From: an uncultured virus (IMG/VR IMGVR_UViG_3300025927_000002)
Taxonomy: Duplodnaviria; Heunggongvirae; Uroviricota; Caudoviricetes
Length of the DNA: 20,000 nt
IMG/VR virus record: IMGVR_UViG_3300025927_000002
Reading direction: 5' to 3' (one strand)
The position numbers were made by a program, and so were the translations under genes. Under the pieces are notes generated by a model. It was not told the DNA's origin, made no database searches, and saw only the letters and a list, made by a program, of their open reading frames with translations. Below are positions 2,246 through 20,000 of this stretch, piece by piece. Every line of letters starts with the position of its first letter. The stretch's first letter is position 1.

Positions 2246-2464
2246 TCACCTGATCCCCCATATCACCCACAGCACGCCGAGCACGCCGAGCATCGCGCCG
2301 GTGGCAAAGGCAACCACGCGGTCGATGACAAGCGGCCAGTCGCGCCGGAGGCGCGGCATCGGCGCGGCTATTGAGTAACCAGCGACGAGCCGGTCGAGAT
2401 GCAGCTCGGCAAGCTGCTGCACAAGGATTTTTTCGTACCGCGCTTGCGCGCCCTCATCTCGCAT
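2246..2464 (-). CDS. Small membrane protein
   Basis: AGGGAG SD at 2471-2476, start MRDEGAQ; C-terminal hydrophobic helix. The longer ORF-track call runs into the non-coding array. Confidence 0.65.
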   Translation of the reverse strand: MRDEGAQARYEKILVQQLAELHLDRLVAGYSIAAPMPRLRRDWPLVIDRVVAFATGAMLGVLGVLWVIWGIR

Positions 2465-2476
2465 TGCCATCTCCCT

Positions 2477-3020
2477 GCCTACCGCGCCGAGCCGAGCCAA
2501 ACCCCGCCGTGCCAAACCCTGCCATGCCTGCCGGGCCAGTCCCTGCCGCGCCCCGCCAAGCCAAGTCATGCCTGCCAAGCCGGGCCACGCCCCGCCAATC
2601 CAAACCGTGCCACGCCAAGCCGCGCCTGCCGGGCCACGCCCCGCCAATCCAAACCGTGCCCCGCCAAGCCCCGCCTGCCGGGCCATACCTCGCCCATCCG
2701 CGCCACGCCTTGCCTAGCCCGCTAAGCCGGGCCACGCCCCGCCAATCCAAACCGTGCCTCGCCGGGCCTGCCATGCCAACCGCGCCAAGCCCCGTCCCGC
2801 CCAGCCAAGCCAGCTCTGCCACGCCGATCCGAGCCCAGCGCTGCCGTGCCGATCCGAGCCTTTCCGCGCCAGCCATGCCACGCCCTGCCCCGTCCCACCG
2901 TGCCTTGCCGCGCCAGCCTGGCCGCGCCAAGCCCCGCCGCGCCGAGCCGGACCATGCCTGCCCAGCCAAGCCCCGCCTCGCCTTCCCAGCCTCGCCCTGC
3001 CCTGCCGAGCCTGCCGTGTC
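2477..3020 (-). ncRNA. GGY-NN pentamer array of ~11 units, putative VIPR-type guide RNA array
   Basis: Near-strict 5-nt period: RCC-NN on + strand = GGY-NN on - strand (some GGA/GAC/AGC variants), ~97 variable dinucleotides, junctions mostly GGCAGGC/GGCTGGC every 43-59 nt; begins ~10 nt after the stop of 3031-3480. Confidence 0.85.
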
Positions 3021-3030
3021 CAAATGTTCG

Positions 3031-3480
3031 TTATTCCACCGGCTCGACGAGCTGCTCGCTTTTCCGTTCGCTTACTCGGCCGACATCTACTCGGTCGGCT
3101 GCCTCGAAAATGCGGACAAGCTCTCGCATGTACTGATACTTACGTTGCCAAACCCGAAACTCGGAGAGTGCTTGTGAAAGAGCCAACGCGCGCAACTCGG
3201 TATCGGACATCACCTCATCGATAGAGCGATATCCACCCTCGGTATGGCGATCTTGTATAAGCGAAATTGTTGCTCGTTTGCCTTCGTCCGAAACCACATG
3301 CACCGCGATCAAACGACGAACCTGCTGTAGGCGCCACTCTTCGGCCGCGAGGCCGTCGTCCCACTCTAAGCGCTTATGCAACTCGCTCTCAGGGTTCTTG
3401 CGAGCCCATTCAACAACGTTGTGCGGTTTGATAAACCCGGCACTATCAGTCAGATCAAGAAGCTCCCGCTCTACAGTCAT
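3031..3480 (-). CDS. Conserved phage protein, accessory partner of the RAMP-like gene
   Basis: IKPHNVVEWARKNPESELHKRLEWDDGLAAEEWRLQQVRRLI motif; ATGA overlap with the RAMP-like gene stop. Confidence 0.85.
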   Translation of the reverse strand: MTVERELLDLTDSAGFIKPHNVVEWARKNPESELHKRLEWDDGLAAEEWRLQQVRRLIAVHVVSDEGKRATISLIQDRHTEGGYRSIDEVMSDTELRALALSQALSEFRVWQRKYQYMRELVRIFEAADRVDVGRVSERKSEQLVEPVE

Positions 3481-4133
3481 GATGCCAACTCCCATGTACC
3501 AAAGCCGATGCCATTGCTATTTTTACTGAATGGCCGGCCTTCTCCGATACCGACCTGGATGCCGGCACGTGCCAGCAAATTTACGACGTCACCAGCCGAG
3601 AATTGATCACCATCCCAGCGCAGATTCACGACGCACTCCCACTTCGACCATATCGGCCGACAGCGTAGATCGACGACACCAGAATCGTTGCGGACCGGGA
3701 TAATTTTATGATCCTCGTCTGGGGCGCCCTCGATCCGTAAAAGCGGTGTTCCGTCTTCGGCGTCGTACCCATCCGCCTCGACAAAGATACTCATCTTTGC
3801 CCGTGTCATTTGGAACCCGCTCATACGACAGGCATCAATAAGGGCGGCGCGGAACCCAGGGGCCGGGATGCCATACCAGCCATCCGTTGCAACGTGAGCT
3901 GCGGCTTTCCAGTCCGCCTCGAAATCACGGGCGTCACGTTTGGCGCCCTTTTTTGAGCGCGCCCCCATCCGATGCTTTTCTTCGAGGATATCCAGGGCCT
4001 TCTTGGAGAACTTGTGCTGCATATACGGGGCTGTGCCGCGGATACGGATCGCACCTCGATCAAACTTTGGTGCCGCGATCGTAATCGCGGAATCTGACGT
4101 CGCGGCGGTGCTATTCAGAATGTCAAGAGGCAT
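3477..4133 (-). CDS. Stand-alone RAMP/Cas7-like protein (Vipr-like)
   Basis: N-terminal strand IRIRGTAPYMQH, IPAPGFRAALIDAC helix, CRPIWSKWEC strand, C-terminal Gly-rich loop GIQVGIGEGRP...GIGFGTW; GGAGA SD at 4141-4145 (alternative ATG 4136). Confidence 0.85.
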   Translation of the reverse strand: MPLDILNSTAATSDSAITIAAPKFDRGAIRIRGTAPYMQHKFSKKALDILEEKHRMGARSKKGAKRDARDFEADWKAAAHVATDGWYGIPAPGFRAALIDACRMSGFQMTRAKMSIFVEADGYDAEDGTPLLRIEGAPDEDHKIIPVRNDSGVVDLRCRPIWSKWECVVNLRWDGDQFSAGDVVNLLARAGIQVGIGEGRPFSKNSNGIGFGTWELAS

Positions 4134-4164
4134 CATAGATTCTCCGGATGGTTGGTTGAAATAC

Positions 4165-4452
4165 CTACAAGGCACGACTAAAATAATCGCGCCGCTCCTC
4201 CCGCCGTTCAGCGGACGAAGCGCTCGCCTCCAGCTCATCGAGCCTGGCTTCGAGTTCGGCGATGATCCGGCCAACGTGATCGGCGCGGTGCTCCCATGTC
4301 GAGATTGCCGCGCGCACGGTCTCGATGTTGTCGCTGCCGATTTCGTGCGGCATCGGCGGGCTGGGGTGACCAGCATCTTCGGCAATATCGGCAGTGCGCT
4401 CTGCCTCGTGTGAGGCGAGGTAATCCGGCCAAAAGGTATCGGGCACGGTCAT
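4165..4452 (-). CDS. Hypothetical phage protein (coiled coil)
   Basis: 95-aa ORF, ATGA overlap with the upstream gene. Confidence 0.65.
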   Translation of the reverse strand: MTVPDTFWPDYLASHEAERTADIAEDAGHPSPPMPHEIGSDNIETVRAAISTWEHRADHVGRIIAELEARLDELEASASSAERREERRDYFSRAL

Positions 4453-4661
4453 GGCGGATACTCAAACGGAGCCCGCTCATTCCAGGCGATCGCGGCGAGT
4501 TCTTCCGCCCCCTTGCCGTGAACTTCAGGACCCCGGCAATCGCAGTGCGCACACCCAACGTATGCGCTTACGGTTTCCCAGGATTCACCTGCGGTAATAC
4601 TGATCCCGTAGCCTCCTGCTCCGCAGAACGGGCAATGCTTTAATGGCGCGATGTCATTCAT
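4449..4661 (-). CDS. Lar-family restriction alleviation protein
   Basis: LKHCPFCG...VGCAHCDCRGP...AAIAWNER zinc-ribbon signature. Confidence 0.85.
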   Translation of the reverse strand: MNDIAPLKHCPFCGAGGYGISITAGESWETVSAYVGCAHCDCRGPEVHGKGAEELAAIAWNERAPFEYPP

Positions 4662-5094
4662 CGCTGCGTCCTCCTAAGCCCGCCGGCGCAGGGGGGATTG
4701 CGCCGGCGGGTAGGCACGCGCCGCGGCCAGGAGTCGGAGCCCGCGCGCTCTCGGCACTAGCGTCGTGATTCGCCCACCGAGGGTCTGGTGAAGAGGATGG
4801 ATCGCTGGCTTTCGCGAGCGCAGCTATTACCTGCTGCCGCACCGCTCCATTTGTATGGGTGTACGGCTCAGCCGCTTTCAGCGCGGCGACCAAATAATCG
4901 AAAGCATTAACCGCACGGACGATTAGACGGGCATTGGCCTCGGCTTCAGACCCATGCGGAGCTGTCGTCCAGCATGTCGCAATCAGACCACAAGCGACAA
5001 AGGTGCTCTCGTCTATGTGCCATATCCCAGGCTGTGATTGATTGCATACCCACGGGAGCGAGGTTGCGCTCACCGGCTTTTTTGTGGCGCTCAT
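4654..5094 (-). CDS. Conserved phage hypothetical protein
   Basis: LPW...EAEANARLIVRAVNAFDYLVAALKA motif common in temperate phage early genes; overlaps both neighbours. Confidence 0.75.
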   Translation of the reverse strand: MSATKKPVSATSLPWVCNQSQPGIWHIDESTFVACGLIATCWTTAPHGSEAEANARLIVRAVNAFDYLVAALKAAEPYTHTNGAVRQQVIAALAKASDPSSSPDPRWANHDASAESARAPTPGRGACLPAGAIPPAPAGLGGRSDE

Positions 5095-5774
5095 GACTGG
5101 CGACCCCCCATGAACAGATCGACAACCATCTCATTGAACCGCTTTTTGGCGGCGGCCCAGGCGGCGGCCCTGGCGGCGTCGGCGGCGGCCCTGGCGGCGG
5201 CCCTGGCGGCGGCCCTGGCGGCGTCGCCGGCGGCCCAGGCGGCGTCGGCGGCGGCGCAGGCGGCGGCCCAGGCGGCCCAGGCGGCGGCGGCGGTGCCGGC
5301 GGCGGTGCAGGCGGCGGTGCAGGCGGCCCCCGCGGCGGCGCCGGTGGCGGCCCTGGCGGCCTCCCTGGAGGCGGTGCAGGCGGCGGCTCTGAGCGTCTCG
5401 TCGCCCGCTTCGAGGTATTCTTTGACAACGGGCGGCGCCTCCCAAAAGTGGATCACCGACAATGCCTGCTCGCGCGCAAACTTCCGCAGCGTGTTTGTTG
5501 CATTGCGCATATCGACATATTCACGATACCTCGCACCCAGTTTATCATCATCCTCGACAACATCGCCCCAACAGCGGACCCGGTACAAATACTGTCCAGG
5601 GGCGTAGGTCAAAGCATCAAACGGGTCGCGAGATGCGTGGAGCGCGTTGTCGCAAAGGACGATATCGCCACCAACCGAATGCGATTCGCCGACGACAATT
5701 AGGCGACCATCGCCATGCGGCAGGCAATCGGACGCGGAGAACCACCACGCATCAATCTTCTTCGGAGCGCTCAC
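5091..5774 (-). CDS. Phage protein with Ala-rich AAWAA/AARA repeats
   Basis: Globular N-terminus (LCDNALHASRDPFDALTYAPG) followed by low-complexity Ala repeats; ATGA overlap. Confidence 0.8.
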   Translation of the reverse strand: MSAPKKIDAWWFSASDCLPHGDGRLIVVGESHSVGGDIVLCDNALHASRDPFDALTYAPGQYLYRVRCWGDVVEDDDKLGARYREYVDMRNATNTLRKFAREQALSVIHFWEAPPVVKEYLEAGDETLRAAACTASREAARAATGAAAGAACTAACTAAGTAAAAWAAWAAACAAADAAWAAGDAARAAARAAARAAADAARAAAWAAAKKRFNEMVVDLFMGGRQS

Positions 5775-16956: not shown

Positions 16957-17017
16957 CAATTGAGAAAGGGGCGGCCTGCGGGCCGCCTCATCTGCAACCA
17001 TGCGAGAGGAATACACA

Positions 17018-17416
17018 ATGAACCGTTATGCTTTGATCCTGCCGATGTTGCTGATGGTGTCTCCTGCGATGGCGGCTGACCCGCCCCAAGCTCAGCCGCC
17101 GGCTCAGGCTCAGCCGCCGGCTCAGGCTCAGCCGCCGGCTCAGGCTCAGCCGCCGGCTCAGGCTCAGCCGCCGGCTCAGGCTCAGGACGAGCTGGCCAGT
17201 GCGATGAATTCGGCATTGCAAGACAGCGCCAAGGCTGCTGGCAATCTCGGTAATGCGGCCCGGGTTGCGATGCAGCAACGGGCGCAGTTGCAGGCACTGC
17301 TGGTCAGGGCGGTGGAGCTGTGCGCCGAGCGGTGCATCGAGCTGACGGGGCCGATTGCACCGGCTGAGCCAGCGCCTGCTGAGGTGAAGCCGGAAGTCGC
17401 GGCGCCACCGAAATGA
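17018..17416 (+). CDS. Secreted protein with AQPPAQ repeats
   Basis: Signal peptide ending SPAMA-A; GAGGA SD. Confidence 0.75.
   Translation: MNRYALILPMLLMVSPAMAADPPQAQPPAQAQPPAQAQPPAQAQPPAQAQPPAQAQDELASAMNSALQDSAKAAGNLGNAARVAMQQRAQLQALLVRAVELCAERCIELTGPIAPAEPAPAEVKPEVAAPPK
17090..17185 (+). repeat. Perfect 18-bp tandem repeat, 5.3 copies
   Basis: (GCTCAGCCGCCGGCTCAG)5 GCTCAG. Confidence 0.95.
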
Positions 17417-18383: not shown

Positions 18384-18953
18384 ATGCTAGGCACCAGATT
18401 TGCGACTGCTTCCCGCTCCGTGCAATCACGGGCTGGGTCGCGCAAGGCCAAGGCAAACCGCCACCATATCGGAGACGAGCTAACGCCTGAGCGGCGTCAG
18501 CACGGCTCGATCGTGCGTGCCGACGGGCCGGTCGAGGATGTCGACGGCAATTATGGGGTGCCCTATATCGCCCGCGACATTCTTGCGACCATGGAAGCGC
18601 GCGGCACGATTAGCGCAGAGATGCGGATTGCTGGCGATCAATTCAGAGAGAATTTCCGGCGGGCTCATTTGGACGAGATGCGCGCAGCCGATCTCGGGCG
18701 GGTTGCTGGCATCGGGGGATCGCTCGATGAGGATCTCAGAATCATGGCCGCAAAGGCTGCGGTTATGCGGGCAATCAAAGATGTTGGCGAACCTGGTGGC
18801 AGCATTTTGTGGAATGTTGTTGGCTTGGAGTGCTCGCTAAAAGATTGGGCGATCGGGCAAAGTTGGAACGGCCGCCCGACCAACGCGGCGGCCGCCAGCG
18901 GAATGCTCGTGGTGACGCTTGGGATGCTGGTCGCTCGGAGCAAGGGGCGCTAA
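18384..18953 (+). CDS. DUF6456-like protein, putative late-gene regulator
   Basis: LATMEARGTISAEMRIAGDQFRENF...SILWNVVGLECSLKDWA...ASGMLVVTLGML; last gene of the rightward block. Confidence 0.7.
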   Translation: MLGTRFATASRSVQSRAGSRKAKANRHHIGDELTPERRQHGSIVRADGPVEDVDGNYGVPYIARDILATMEARGTISAEMRIAGDQFRENFRRAHLDEMRAADLGRVAGIGGSLDEDLRIMAAKAAVMRAIKDVGEPGGSILWNVVGLECSLKDWAIGQSWNGRPTNAAAASGMLVVTLGMLVARSKGR

Positions 18954-19117
18954 GTGTCATCAGACCTCACCTCTCTATCTAGTAAGAGATGGAGGTCAGT
19001 TATTCTGATCCATTGTTCTCTAGTCCTATCGACCATCTCGATTAACATGAGCTGGTCAAACTCATCTTTTAGTGGTCTGGCGTAGTCTATAGCTTCGATA
19101 AGTTCGCGGTACGTCAT
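18950..19117 (-). CDS. Small hypothetical protein
   Basis: AAGGA SD; TGATG overlap with the upstream HTH gene. Confidence 0.55.
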   Translation of the reverse strand: MTYRELIEAIDYARPLKDEFDQLMLIEMVDRTREQWIRITDLHLLLDREVRSDDT

Positions 19118-19329
19118 CACTTCATTCCTTCTGCTTGTTGTCTCGCCCGCTCCCGCTCGATATACAGCCATACGTAATCAGGAATAGGTGTTGGCTTACC
19201 GGTGCGCGGGTCCGGTGCATCTGATATCCAGCGCTCAACGTGGCGCCATGATCGGTTGACGATCTTCGCAAACTCGGCCGGTGTCAGGCCGAGGGATGCG
19301 ATGGCGGCGCGGAGGTCGGCGGCGGTCAT
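19117..19329 (-). CDS. Small XRE-like HTH protein
   Basis: MTAADLRAAIASLGLTPAEFAKIVNRSWRHVERW...PIP; ATGA overlap. Confidence 0.8.
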   Translation of the reverse strand: MTAADLRAAIASLGLTPAEFAKIVNRSWRHVERWISDAPDPRTGKPTPIPDYVWLYIERERARQQAEGMK

Positions 19330-19556
19330 TCGCACCATTCGCCCAAACGCACGATGCGGCATTCTACCGGGCGGCCGGCCTCGGTGGCGCGTTTACGAAT
19401 TAGCCGCGTTAATGTTTGCGCGTTATCATACGATAGGGGCTTGCAGTTCGATGGTGTGTTTTTAACAGATAAATCAGTCTGGACGTAAAGCCATGGGTCG
19501 GCGCTCTGGCCTTTGTCACGAATGGCTATAGTGTAGGATGTTGAGTTCGTCATCAT
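19326..19556 (-). CDS. Hypothetical protein
   Basis: GGGAGA SD; coupled to the HTH gene. Confidence 0.65.
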   Translation of the reverse strand: MMTNSTSYTIAIRDKGQSADPWLYVQTDLSVKNTPSNCKPLSYDNAQTLTRLIRKRATEAGRPVECRIVRLGEWCE

Positions 19557-19608: not shown

Positions 19609-19824
19609 TTAGTGCTGGACGTCTTCGTGGAGAACTTCGGCCAAGTTATTTTCTAGTTGATCCGCTTTATATCGGCGATCCATCTCGGCTAGATAGATAT
19701 CGCAGATGTCGCCGTTTCCGAGGATTGTGTTGCGGCCGTAAGCGGCCTCTAGTTCGCGATCAGTCATTGATACACAATGCTCGATTGCCCAAATGATCGC
19801 TTGTTCATGTGCGCTCTGTGTCAT
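19609..19824 (-). CDS. Hypothetical acidic protein
   Basis: GGGAGA SD before MTQSAHEQ. Confidence 0.65.
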   Translation of the reverse strand: MTQSAHEQAIIWAIEHCVSMTDRELEAAYGRNTILGNGDICDIYLAEMDRRYKADQLENNLAEVLHEDVQH

Positions 19825-19838
19825 GGTCGTCTCCCGTT

Positions 19839-19884
19839 GGGTTTCGCTCGTGCTCATCAGTTCCGGACTTGTACCGGAAGACCC
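19839..19884 (-). ncRNA. Type III hammerhead ribozyme
   Basis: GGGUC|UUCCGG-UACAAGU-CCGGAA-CUGAUGA-GC-ACGA-GC-GAA-ACCC: intact core, stem I 6 bp, stem II 2 bp, stem III 4 bp. Confidence 0.85.
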
Positions 19885-20000
19885 TTCCCCGGCTAGGCCG
19901 GTTCCGCCCTTGGGGCGATGTCGCGGGTTCTTTCTGTTTCCGCGCCGGGTTGCTTTGGCTATGGTGCCTCGGGTCCGGAGCCCGTGTCTGTCTGACCATC

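Follow-up and report, generated by a model that had tools for sequence, protein, structure and literature searches.

A compact type III hammerhead motif ahead of a small-gene operon in an uncultured phage, and the widespread subfamily to which it belongs

The window, a 20,000-nucleotide stretch of DNA from an uncultured member of the Caudoviricetes (IMG/VR record IMGVR_UViG_3300025927_000002), carries at 19884-19839 on its minus strand an intact type III hammerhead ribozyme motif, confirmed here at the level of sequence and fold. This copy belongs to a compact, widespread phage subfamily that falls below Rfam thresholds and has a fixed geometry: a 6-bp stem I, a U-RNRA-G-U loop, a GC/GC stem II, and a short loop ending in A. 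Hammerheads as a class, their occurrence in phages, and stems II this short had been described before; the compact subfamily appears to be a variant of them not yet described. On balance, the motif probably cuts constitutively, 44 nt before the Shine-Dalgarno (SD) sequence, which would give a four-gene operon a defined, uniform, and decay-resistant mRNA 5′ end. The parts of the motif and the SD that follows it are these:

19839..19884, minus strand: compact type III hammerhead ribozyme motif, 46 bases, from sequence and fold
19884-19881 paired with 19839-19842, minus strand: stem III, 4 bp, including U16.1-A15.1
19880/19879, minus strand: predicted cleavage site, 3′ of C17 (19880) in GUC, after the hammerhead consensus in a figure legend of PMC6155905
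19879-19874 paired with 19861-19866, minus strand: stem I, six Watson-Crick pairs; the whole hairpin spans 19861..19879
19873-19867, minus strand: loop I, UACAAGU, 7 nt, pattern U-RNRA-G-U
19860-19854, minus strand: core CUGAUGA
G19853-C19846 and C19852-G19847, minus strand: stem II, 2 bp, GC/GC; the element spans 19846..19853
within stem II (19846..19853), minus strand: loop II, ACGA, its final A invariant across the subfamily
19845-19842, minus strand: core GAAA
19835-19830, minus strand: Shine-Dalgarno-like GGGAGA, 5 nt ahead of the ATG at 19824 and 3 nt past stem III

The core of the window copy is complete for the hammerhead class (C3 U4 G5 A6 N7 G8 A9, G12 A13 A14, A15.1-U16.1, and H17) and is surrounded by three helices of 4, 6, and 2 pairs. 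Stems I and II are closed by loops and stem III is open, which is the type III permutation, and G10.1-C11.1 closes stem II in agreement with the R10.1-Y11.1 rule. Every core base and all 12 pairs are intact; three bases differ from the nearest subfamily cores, two of them as a compensated pair. An earlier note, made from the letters of the window, had read 19839..19884 as a type III hammerhead with a full core, a cut between 19880 and 19879, and a minimal 2-bp stem II, ending a few nucleotides before the GGGAGA SD. Each of these elements was found on the minus strand where the note had placed it, and its interpretation is supported. Self-cleavage 3′ of H17, leaving a 5′-OH and a 2′,3′-cyclic phosphate, is predicted for the window copy, and the 5′-OH end that the note had foreseen on the downstream small-gene mRNA stands as a prediction from the topology of the motif. 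What the note did not contain is the large subfamily, the paired stem I that would open the predicted 3′ product, and the fact that 2-bp stems II had already been described as common (in passages of PMC3088659).

The window forms the last part of a contig of 65,093 bases, whose 127-bp terminal repeat indicates a circular phage genome; terminase, portal, capsid, tail, and primase genes are all present. The region was found in 20 of 24 listed DNA runs, all of them from rhizosphere, and 16 are marked as a possible source. Only one copy of the motif occurs in the circular genome, and its surroundings are as follows:

19880..19996, minus strand: predicted 5′ cleavage fragment, about 117 nt with several short hairpins, its start taken from a weak promoter-like element
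19889..19901, minus strand: 5-bp hairpin, 4 nt upstream of stem III, lacking a U-run; the subfamily shows an enrichment of similar hairpins at this position
19609..19824, minus strand: ORF1, 71 aa, no family, identical or partial copies only
19326..19556, minus strand: ORF2, 76 aa, no family
19117..19329, minus strand: ORF3, about 70 aa, start overlapping the ORF2 stop, weak match to helix-turn-helix (HTH) regulators
18950..19117, minus strand: ORF4, about 55 aa, no family, start overlapping the ORF3 stop
18384-18953, plus strand: DUF6456-like gene, on which ORF4 converges

The four-gene operon sits between the DUF6456-like gene and divergent packaging genes, and the next gene upstream of the ribozyme, in the terminase small-subunit region, runs in the opposite direction. 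CGGGAGA precedes ORF2 as well as ORF1, and no further ATG in the genome has CGGGAGA at such spacing. Two further frames were set aside for lack of an SD: one of 64 aa that begins at 19999 and crosses the ribozyme, and a version of ORF1 extended to 82 aa by a start at 19857. Searches for relatives of ORF1 and ORF3 returned only identical copies and one weak HTH match; the matches of ORF3 lie below cut-off (PHROG regulator families, E about 0.001; Pfam HTH_23, E 0.0011). Across the circular junction, a weak promoter-like element (TTGCGC, 17 nt, CATATT; contig 130-158) points at the operon. It is a consensus match below threshold, and a promoter scanner called none. From this element, we infer that transcription starts near 19996, which would put a leader of about 117 nt ahead of the cut. 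The location in a 5′ leader that the earlier note had assumed is borne out in the same indirect way, by the circular contig, the divergent upstream gene, and the promoter-like element past the end of the window. A perfect 15-bp palindrome that occurs once in the genome (contig 133-147) overlaps the spacer and −10 box of the element; it is a possible operator, flanked by the divergent packaging genes on one side and on the other by the operon, which includes a small HTH gene, and autoregulation by the ORF3 protein is a guess.

The core words alone are weak evidence for a hammerhead, being present in 32 of 200 shuffles. A generic type III descriptor matched once in the real circular genome and once across 600 genomes simulated with a Markov-3 model; none of the 600 gave a match when stem I had to be 6 bp long. 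The motif is not a product of chance. Assembly error is excluded as well, because the identical motif is found in four IMG/VR contigs (L063, L064, L081, L090). In the search with Rfam hammerhead models that the earlier note had proposed as a check, RF00008 (Hammerhead_3) aligns end to end, but its score, 23.4 bits over a 63-base stretch that we selected, is below the gathering score of 48.5 and hence short of membership. At gathering level, Rfam returned no match in the window or in the rest of the genome, and neither Rfam at that level nor a subfamily model, R1, located a second ribozyme in the phage. R1 scores the window copy at 69.8 bits with that copy included in its alignment. A type II reading (RF02276, 22.6 bits) was rejected, since its threading needs non-canonical pairs and breaks the core. 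Against 50,697 annotated phage records, blastn returned no match to 501 bases of the region and only partial matches, with E of 1-4, to two 52-base cores.

Members of the subfamily were collected by pattern scans of IMG/VR (first scan: 95 loci, 97 matches; second scan: at least 120 loci, 122 matches listed, about 170 estimated), GTDB genomes (16 loci), and metagenomes (at least 122 loci, about 350 estimated). Before subfamily counts were made, 14 of the 97 rows of the first set, 22 of 122 of the second, and 2 of 122 of the metagenome set (stem III shorter than 3 bp) were dropped. A loosened GTDB pattern gave 120 matches; 113 had no 6-bp stem I and were dropped, and six of the other seven were already known. 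The 212 records kept, from phage, metagenome, and genome collections, comprise at least 127 distinct cores in at least 97 unrelated flank clusters, with flank GC spanning 21-69% among the matches listed. The first pattern left the length of stem I and the U...AGU loop free, yet stem I is 6 bp long in 83 of its 97 matches, and the loop is shared by 77 of those 83. The GC/GC stem II, also unconstrained, is present in 97 of 100 full-stem matches versus 1 of 22 others among the matches listed in the second set, and all six stem I pairs are formed in 121 of 122 matches listed in the metagenome set. No hammerhead match was returned by Rfam at gathering level for 37 subfamily loci; the subfamily is missed at Rfam thresholds, so that routine annotation undercounts it.

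The genomic context of the subfamily is that of phages, with terminase, portal, capsid, and tail genes. Flanking proteins rarely match a known family (Pfam, 10 of 146; PHROGs, 8 of 84), and no common family was found among the upstream genes. Phage context and small, non-conserved flanking genes agree with the class of ribozyme clusters around small phage genes; a twister or pistol ribozyme accompanies the motif at 2 of 37 loci, in the same orientation and no more than about 2 kb away, and none is present in the genome of the window. Pistol and twister-P5 ribozymes and a skipping-rope RNA lie near members on the same strand (L224:428-492 and 2566-2625, L051:976-1032, L001:528-608). Tandem copies are present in L038 and L059, the latter with a third copy at 2283-2334 that has the core variant CCGAUGA (U4C). 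In L233, a transposase gene on the opposite strand (3800-5020) is found inside a phage virion gene block. The named GTDB genome records include Clostridia, Butyrivibrio, Bacteroidales groups, Gemmata, and Woesearchaeota and Pacearchaeota bins. Eight AT-rich members (L227, L229, L258, L275, L302, L318, L332, L351) have a UUC triplet, an A/U-rich stem III, and an ATG directly behind stem III with no SD; L227 and L229 are the Woesearchaeota and Pacearchaeota bins.

In a 68-row alignment of the subfamily, both partners change in 9 of the 13 pairs (198 cells versus 50 in shuffles), among them five of the six stem I pairs. The percentage of paired bases in these rows is circular, because the rows were selected for having stems. 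Stem II never covaries, so its support consists of invariance only, and the compensatory changes sit in stems I and III.

The loops carry a signal of their own. Loop II ends in A in 59 of 59 and 63 of 63 cores, a feature that was in no search pattern, and covariation links the second base of loop I to the penultimate base of loop II, a pair of positions that ranks fourth by MI-APC, among true stem pairs. Counted by cluster, the combinations are A/G in 66, A/other in 3, non-A/G in 0, and non-A/non-G in 27, where flank clusters are a partial correction for shared descent. The rule also holds in the later metagenome set, and three stem I sequences occur with both loop types. It is likely, from this covariation, that the two positions form a tertiary contact; they are the one loop-loop pair that covaries in the subfamily. 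The covarying positions offer a concrete target for the structure of a hammerhead with a 2-bp stem II.

According to passages of PMC2632901 on viroid hammerheads, activity is driven by the first U and an extrahelical 3′ U in a loop 1 of 7 nt and by the A at the end of loop 2; the two positions found here to covary in the phage subfamily had smaller effects. As in RF00008 and the viroid and satellite loop motif treated in those passages, the subfamily has an open stem III, a full core, and a 7-nt loop 1 starting with U, and its loop 2 begins with a purine and ends with A. In contrast to the viroid and satellite motif, the 3′ U of loop 1 is last and not penultimate, so that three of the four features of the U-Nm-Y-N/R-Nn-A motif (Dufour et al.) are present, the penultimate loop 1 base being G; atypical cases with such a loop 1 are named in the same passages. 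The shifted 3′ U suggests that docking has moved toward the core, where it would reach the short stem II. The subfamily differs from RF00008 also in its stem II, which is 2 bp where that of the model is longer, and in its DNA phage context. Nor is it the pseudoknotted type with at least four Watson-Crick loop pairs (Perreault et al.), since UACAAGU and ACGA allow no 4-bp helix.

The first base of loop I (19873) is U in the window copy and C in contigs from three of the four other runs. This site, an A/G polymorphism among runs, adjoins the start of the 127-bp terminal repeat, and the assembler probably opened the circle at the variant. For U to C at the first base of loop 1 in a viroid hammerhead, a passage of PMC2632901 gives a fall from 3.33 to 0.91 per minute. 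With C at this site, a pair with G6 of the loop could form, comparable to the U-A variant seen in L067.

In the minimum free energy (MFE) fold of a long leader, the window copy forms all three hammerhead stems, with stem probabilities of 0.6-0.7. Short fragments prefer a rival 8-bp helix between the cut-site strand and the SD region (probability about 0.6), and the stems are not formed in simulated nascent chains ending at 19838-19834. Folding z-scores of the window copy are not significant. The stem I hairpin is retained in the MFE fold of the predicted 3′ product. Such rival folds, together with the loop I polymorphism and the single copy in the genome, would fit a genuine subfamily member that is slow or inactive in this phage, misfolding or decaying, with an operon independent of it; according to passages of Perreault 2011 (PMC3088659), 4 of 18 consensus hammerheads tested were inactive and 14 active. 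We consider this the most improbable of the readings weighed here, given the intact core and pairs, the mostly compensated differences from the nearest cores, the presence of all three stems in the long leader, and the pairing open to the C allele. As modeled, ribozyme activity in its own context is likely.

Placement relative to genes links the subfamily measurably to ribosome sites. An SD, a start codon, and an ORF of at least 40 aa, all within 45 nt downstream, are found in 34 of 49 clusters, compared with 169 of 1960 randomly placed sites and with 1 of 48 when the other strand is read; among the matches listed, fresh metagenome clusters give 30 of 52 versus 164 of 2000. The median downstream ORF is about 71 aa. 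By a simple gene caller, 34 of 48 clusters have a same-strand gene that ends 7-47 nt upstream, six have such a gene further off, and eight face a divergent gene, the window copy being of this last kind. With a close co-directional gene upstream in 34 clusters and none in 14, the shared feature is the downstream gene.

A hairpin just ahead of stem III is enriched: z is −2 or below in 21 of 52 clusters, compared with 5-7 of 52 for each of three windows lying further upstream and 2 of 52 on the downstream side. Only 5 of 52 show a U-run, so the hairpin is mostly not a terminator, and that reading was rejected. The enrichment would suit a model in which the upstream piece is the useful product, here a structured RNA of roughly 117 nt and in relatives an upstream mRNA with a hairpin-guarded 2′,3′-cyclic phosphate end. 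This is improbable, if slightly less so than an inactive copy: the 5′ fragment of the window folds little better than shuffles (z −1.66, not significant) and matches no Rfam family, the upstream genes share no family, and the link to the SD is downstream.

Cleavage might instead unmask the ribosome site, with the SD paired in the uncut RNA and translation waiting for the cut. The 8-bp pairing of the cut-site strand with the SD region would allow this in the window copy, as would the long-leader MFE fold, in which four SD-region bases are paired with the 5′ fragment. Across the subfamily, an overlap between ribozyme and called SD is seen in 10 of 35 clusters, six times in the 3′ strand of stem III and four times in loop II, where the ATG is right behind stem III. 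However, opening the SD-to-AUG region costs 2.9-5.2 kcal/mol in precursors of varied length versus 3.8 in the product, with no consistent gain, and the median gain on cutting across the 35 clusters is only 0.4 kcal/mol (10 gain at least 1, and one loses at least 1). Unmasking is thus not supported by these models for the window copy or as a subfamily rule, and as an account of the motif it is unlikely, though the least so of the alternatives; it is possible for some members, namely those whose SD falls within stem III or loop II. Five members (L003, L017, L021, L025, L204) have an SD-like AGGA or GGAG in loop II and an ATG 2-3 nt past the core. By their sequences, ribosome binding and ribozyme folding would be mutually exclusive in these five.

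Constitutive cutting, the reading we favor, starts from the intact core, the three stems, the compensatory changes, and the orientation and distance relative to the SD and start codon. Loop II would dock on loop I through two contacts, one between the first U of loop I and the last A of loop II and one between the second base of loop I and the penultimate base of loop II, offsetting the 2-bp stem II and permitting cutting at cellular Mg2+, and the weak 4-bp stem III would release the 5′ piece. From the topology, the 3′ piece is expected to open with a 5′-OH on the paired stem I base, with no unpaired 5′ base. Such a paired 5′-OH end may be a poor substrate for RppH and for 5′-monophosphate-stimulated RNase E, so that the small genes would get a uniform and more stable mRNA. 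Passages of PMC3997798 state that RppH and RNase E need single-stranded 5′ ends and that RNase E prefers a 5′ monophosphate, and it is on account of this reliance that a stable end is favored. In most relatives, where the cassette lies between two co-directional genes, cutting would in addition divide the transcript in two, and the upstream hairpin would protect the 3′ end of the first part.

As a counterpoint, the same passages report that RNase J1 degrades the 5′-OH product of glmS (PMC3997798). By analogy, the cut could damp the operon, exposing the 5′-OH product to a 5′ exonuclease such as RNase J and keeping small, possibly harmful proteins to a short burst; many of the named genome members are Bacillota, which would suit this. 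RNase J requires several unpaired 5′ bases. The predicted product has none, the motif gives no hint of ligand control, and the same form is kept at 21-69% GC, and we regard damping as unlikely, somewhat more so than unmasking.

A broader reading of the subfamily can be offered tentatively; we hold it to be possible and less probable than constitutive cutting at the window copy. The motif would be a portable 42-nt mRNA-end cassette, the smallest widespread type III hammerhead, with its own loop docking around a 2-bp stem II, carried by phages of bacteria and by elements in Woesearchaeota and Pacearchaeota bins. Placed directly before a ribosome site, it would give small early genes a hairpin-sealed 5′-OH start unreadable to host 5′-end decay, and in some members, where stem III or loop II contains the SD, it would make ribosome binding and ribozyme folding exclusive. 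If this is true, the cassette would lend itself directly to testing what purpose phage ribozymes serve. Because the subfamily is small and uniform, has a measurable SD distance, and comes in leader, intergenic, and SD-overlapping versions, models based on stability and on translation can be compared in one reporter series.

Among known systems, glmS is alike in its self-cleavage in a bacterial 5′ leader with a 5′-OH on the coding piece (passages of PMC3997798), but it has a different fold, is ligand-gated, and triggers decay, whereas the subfamily has no evident ligand site and its new end would be base-paired. Type I hammerheads of eukaryotic RNA viruses are likewise natural, located in 5′ leaders and linked to translation, many with a helix II of 1-2 bp; unlike the subfamily, they are type I and lack both the typical loop-loop contact and an SD. 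Closest in context are the hammerheads that, in passages of Perreault 2011 (PMC3088659), flank small genes of phages and prophages, commonly with 2-pair stems II and in one case 13 nt ahead of a start codon; relative to those described there, the subfamily has a single fixed geometry and a covarying loop-loop position. Portions of two reviews (PMC6155905, PMC6765202) also treat hammerheads flanking small phage and prophage genes and regard the role of hammerheads in bacteria and phages as still open. In the literature covered, in part as passages, no description of the subfamily or its loop covariation was found, and the type III part of Dataset S1 of Perreault 2011 may list members; the geometry is absent from passages of PMC13725137, PMC10085705, PMC10827157, and PMC5737381.

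Elsewhere in the window, a long low-complexity stretch of short GC-rich repeated words (2246-3177) gives rise to repetitive frames on both strands. Two repeat ORFs were also seen: one at 5091-5774 has internal repeats and an alanine-rich block, and one at 17000-17416 carries five copies of a PPAQAQ-type unit behind a signal-like start.
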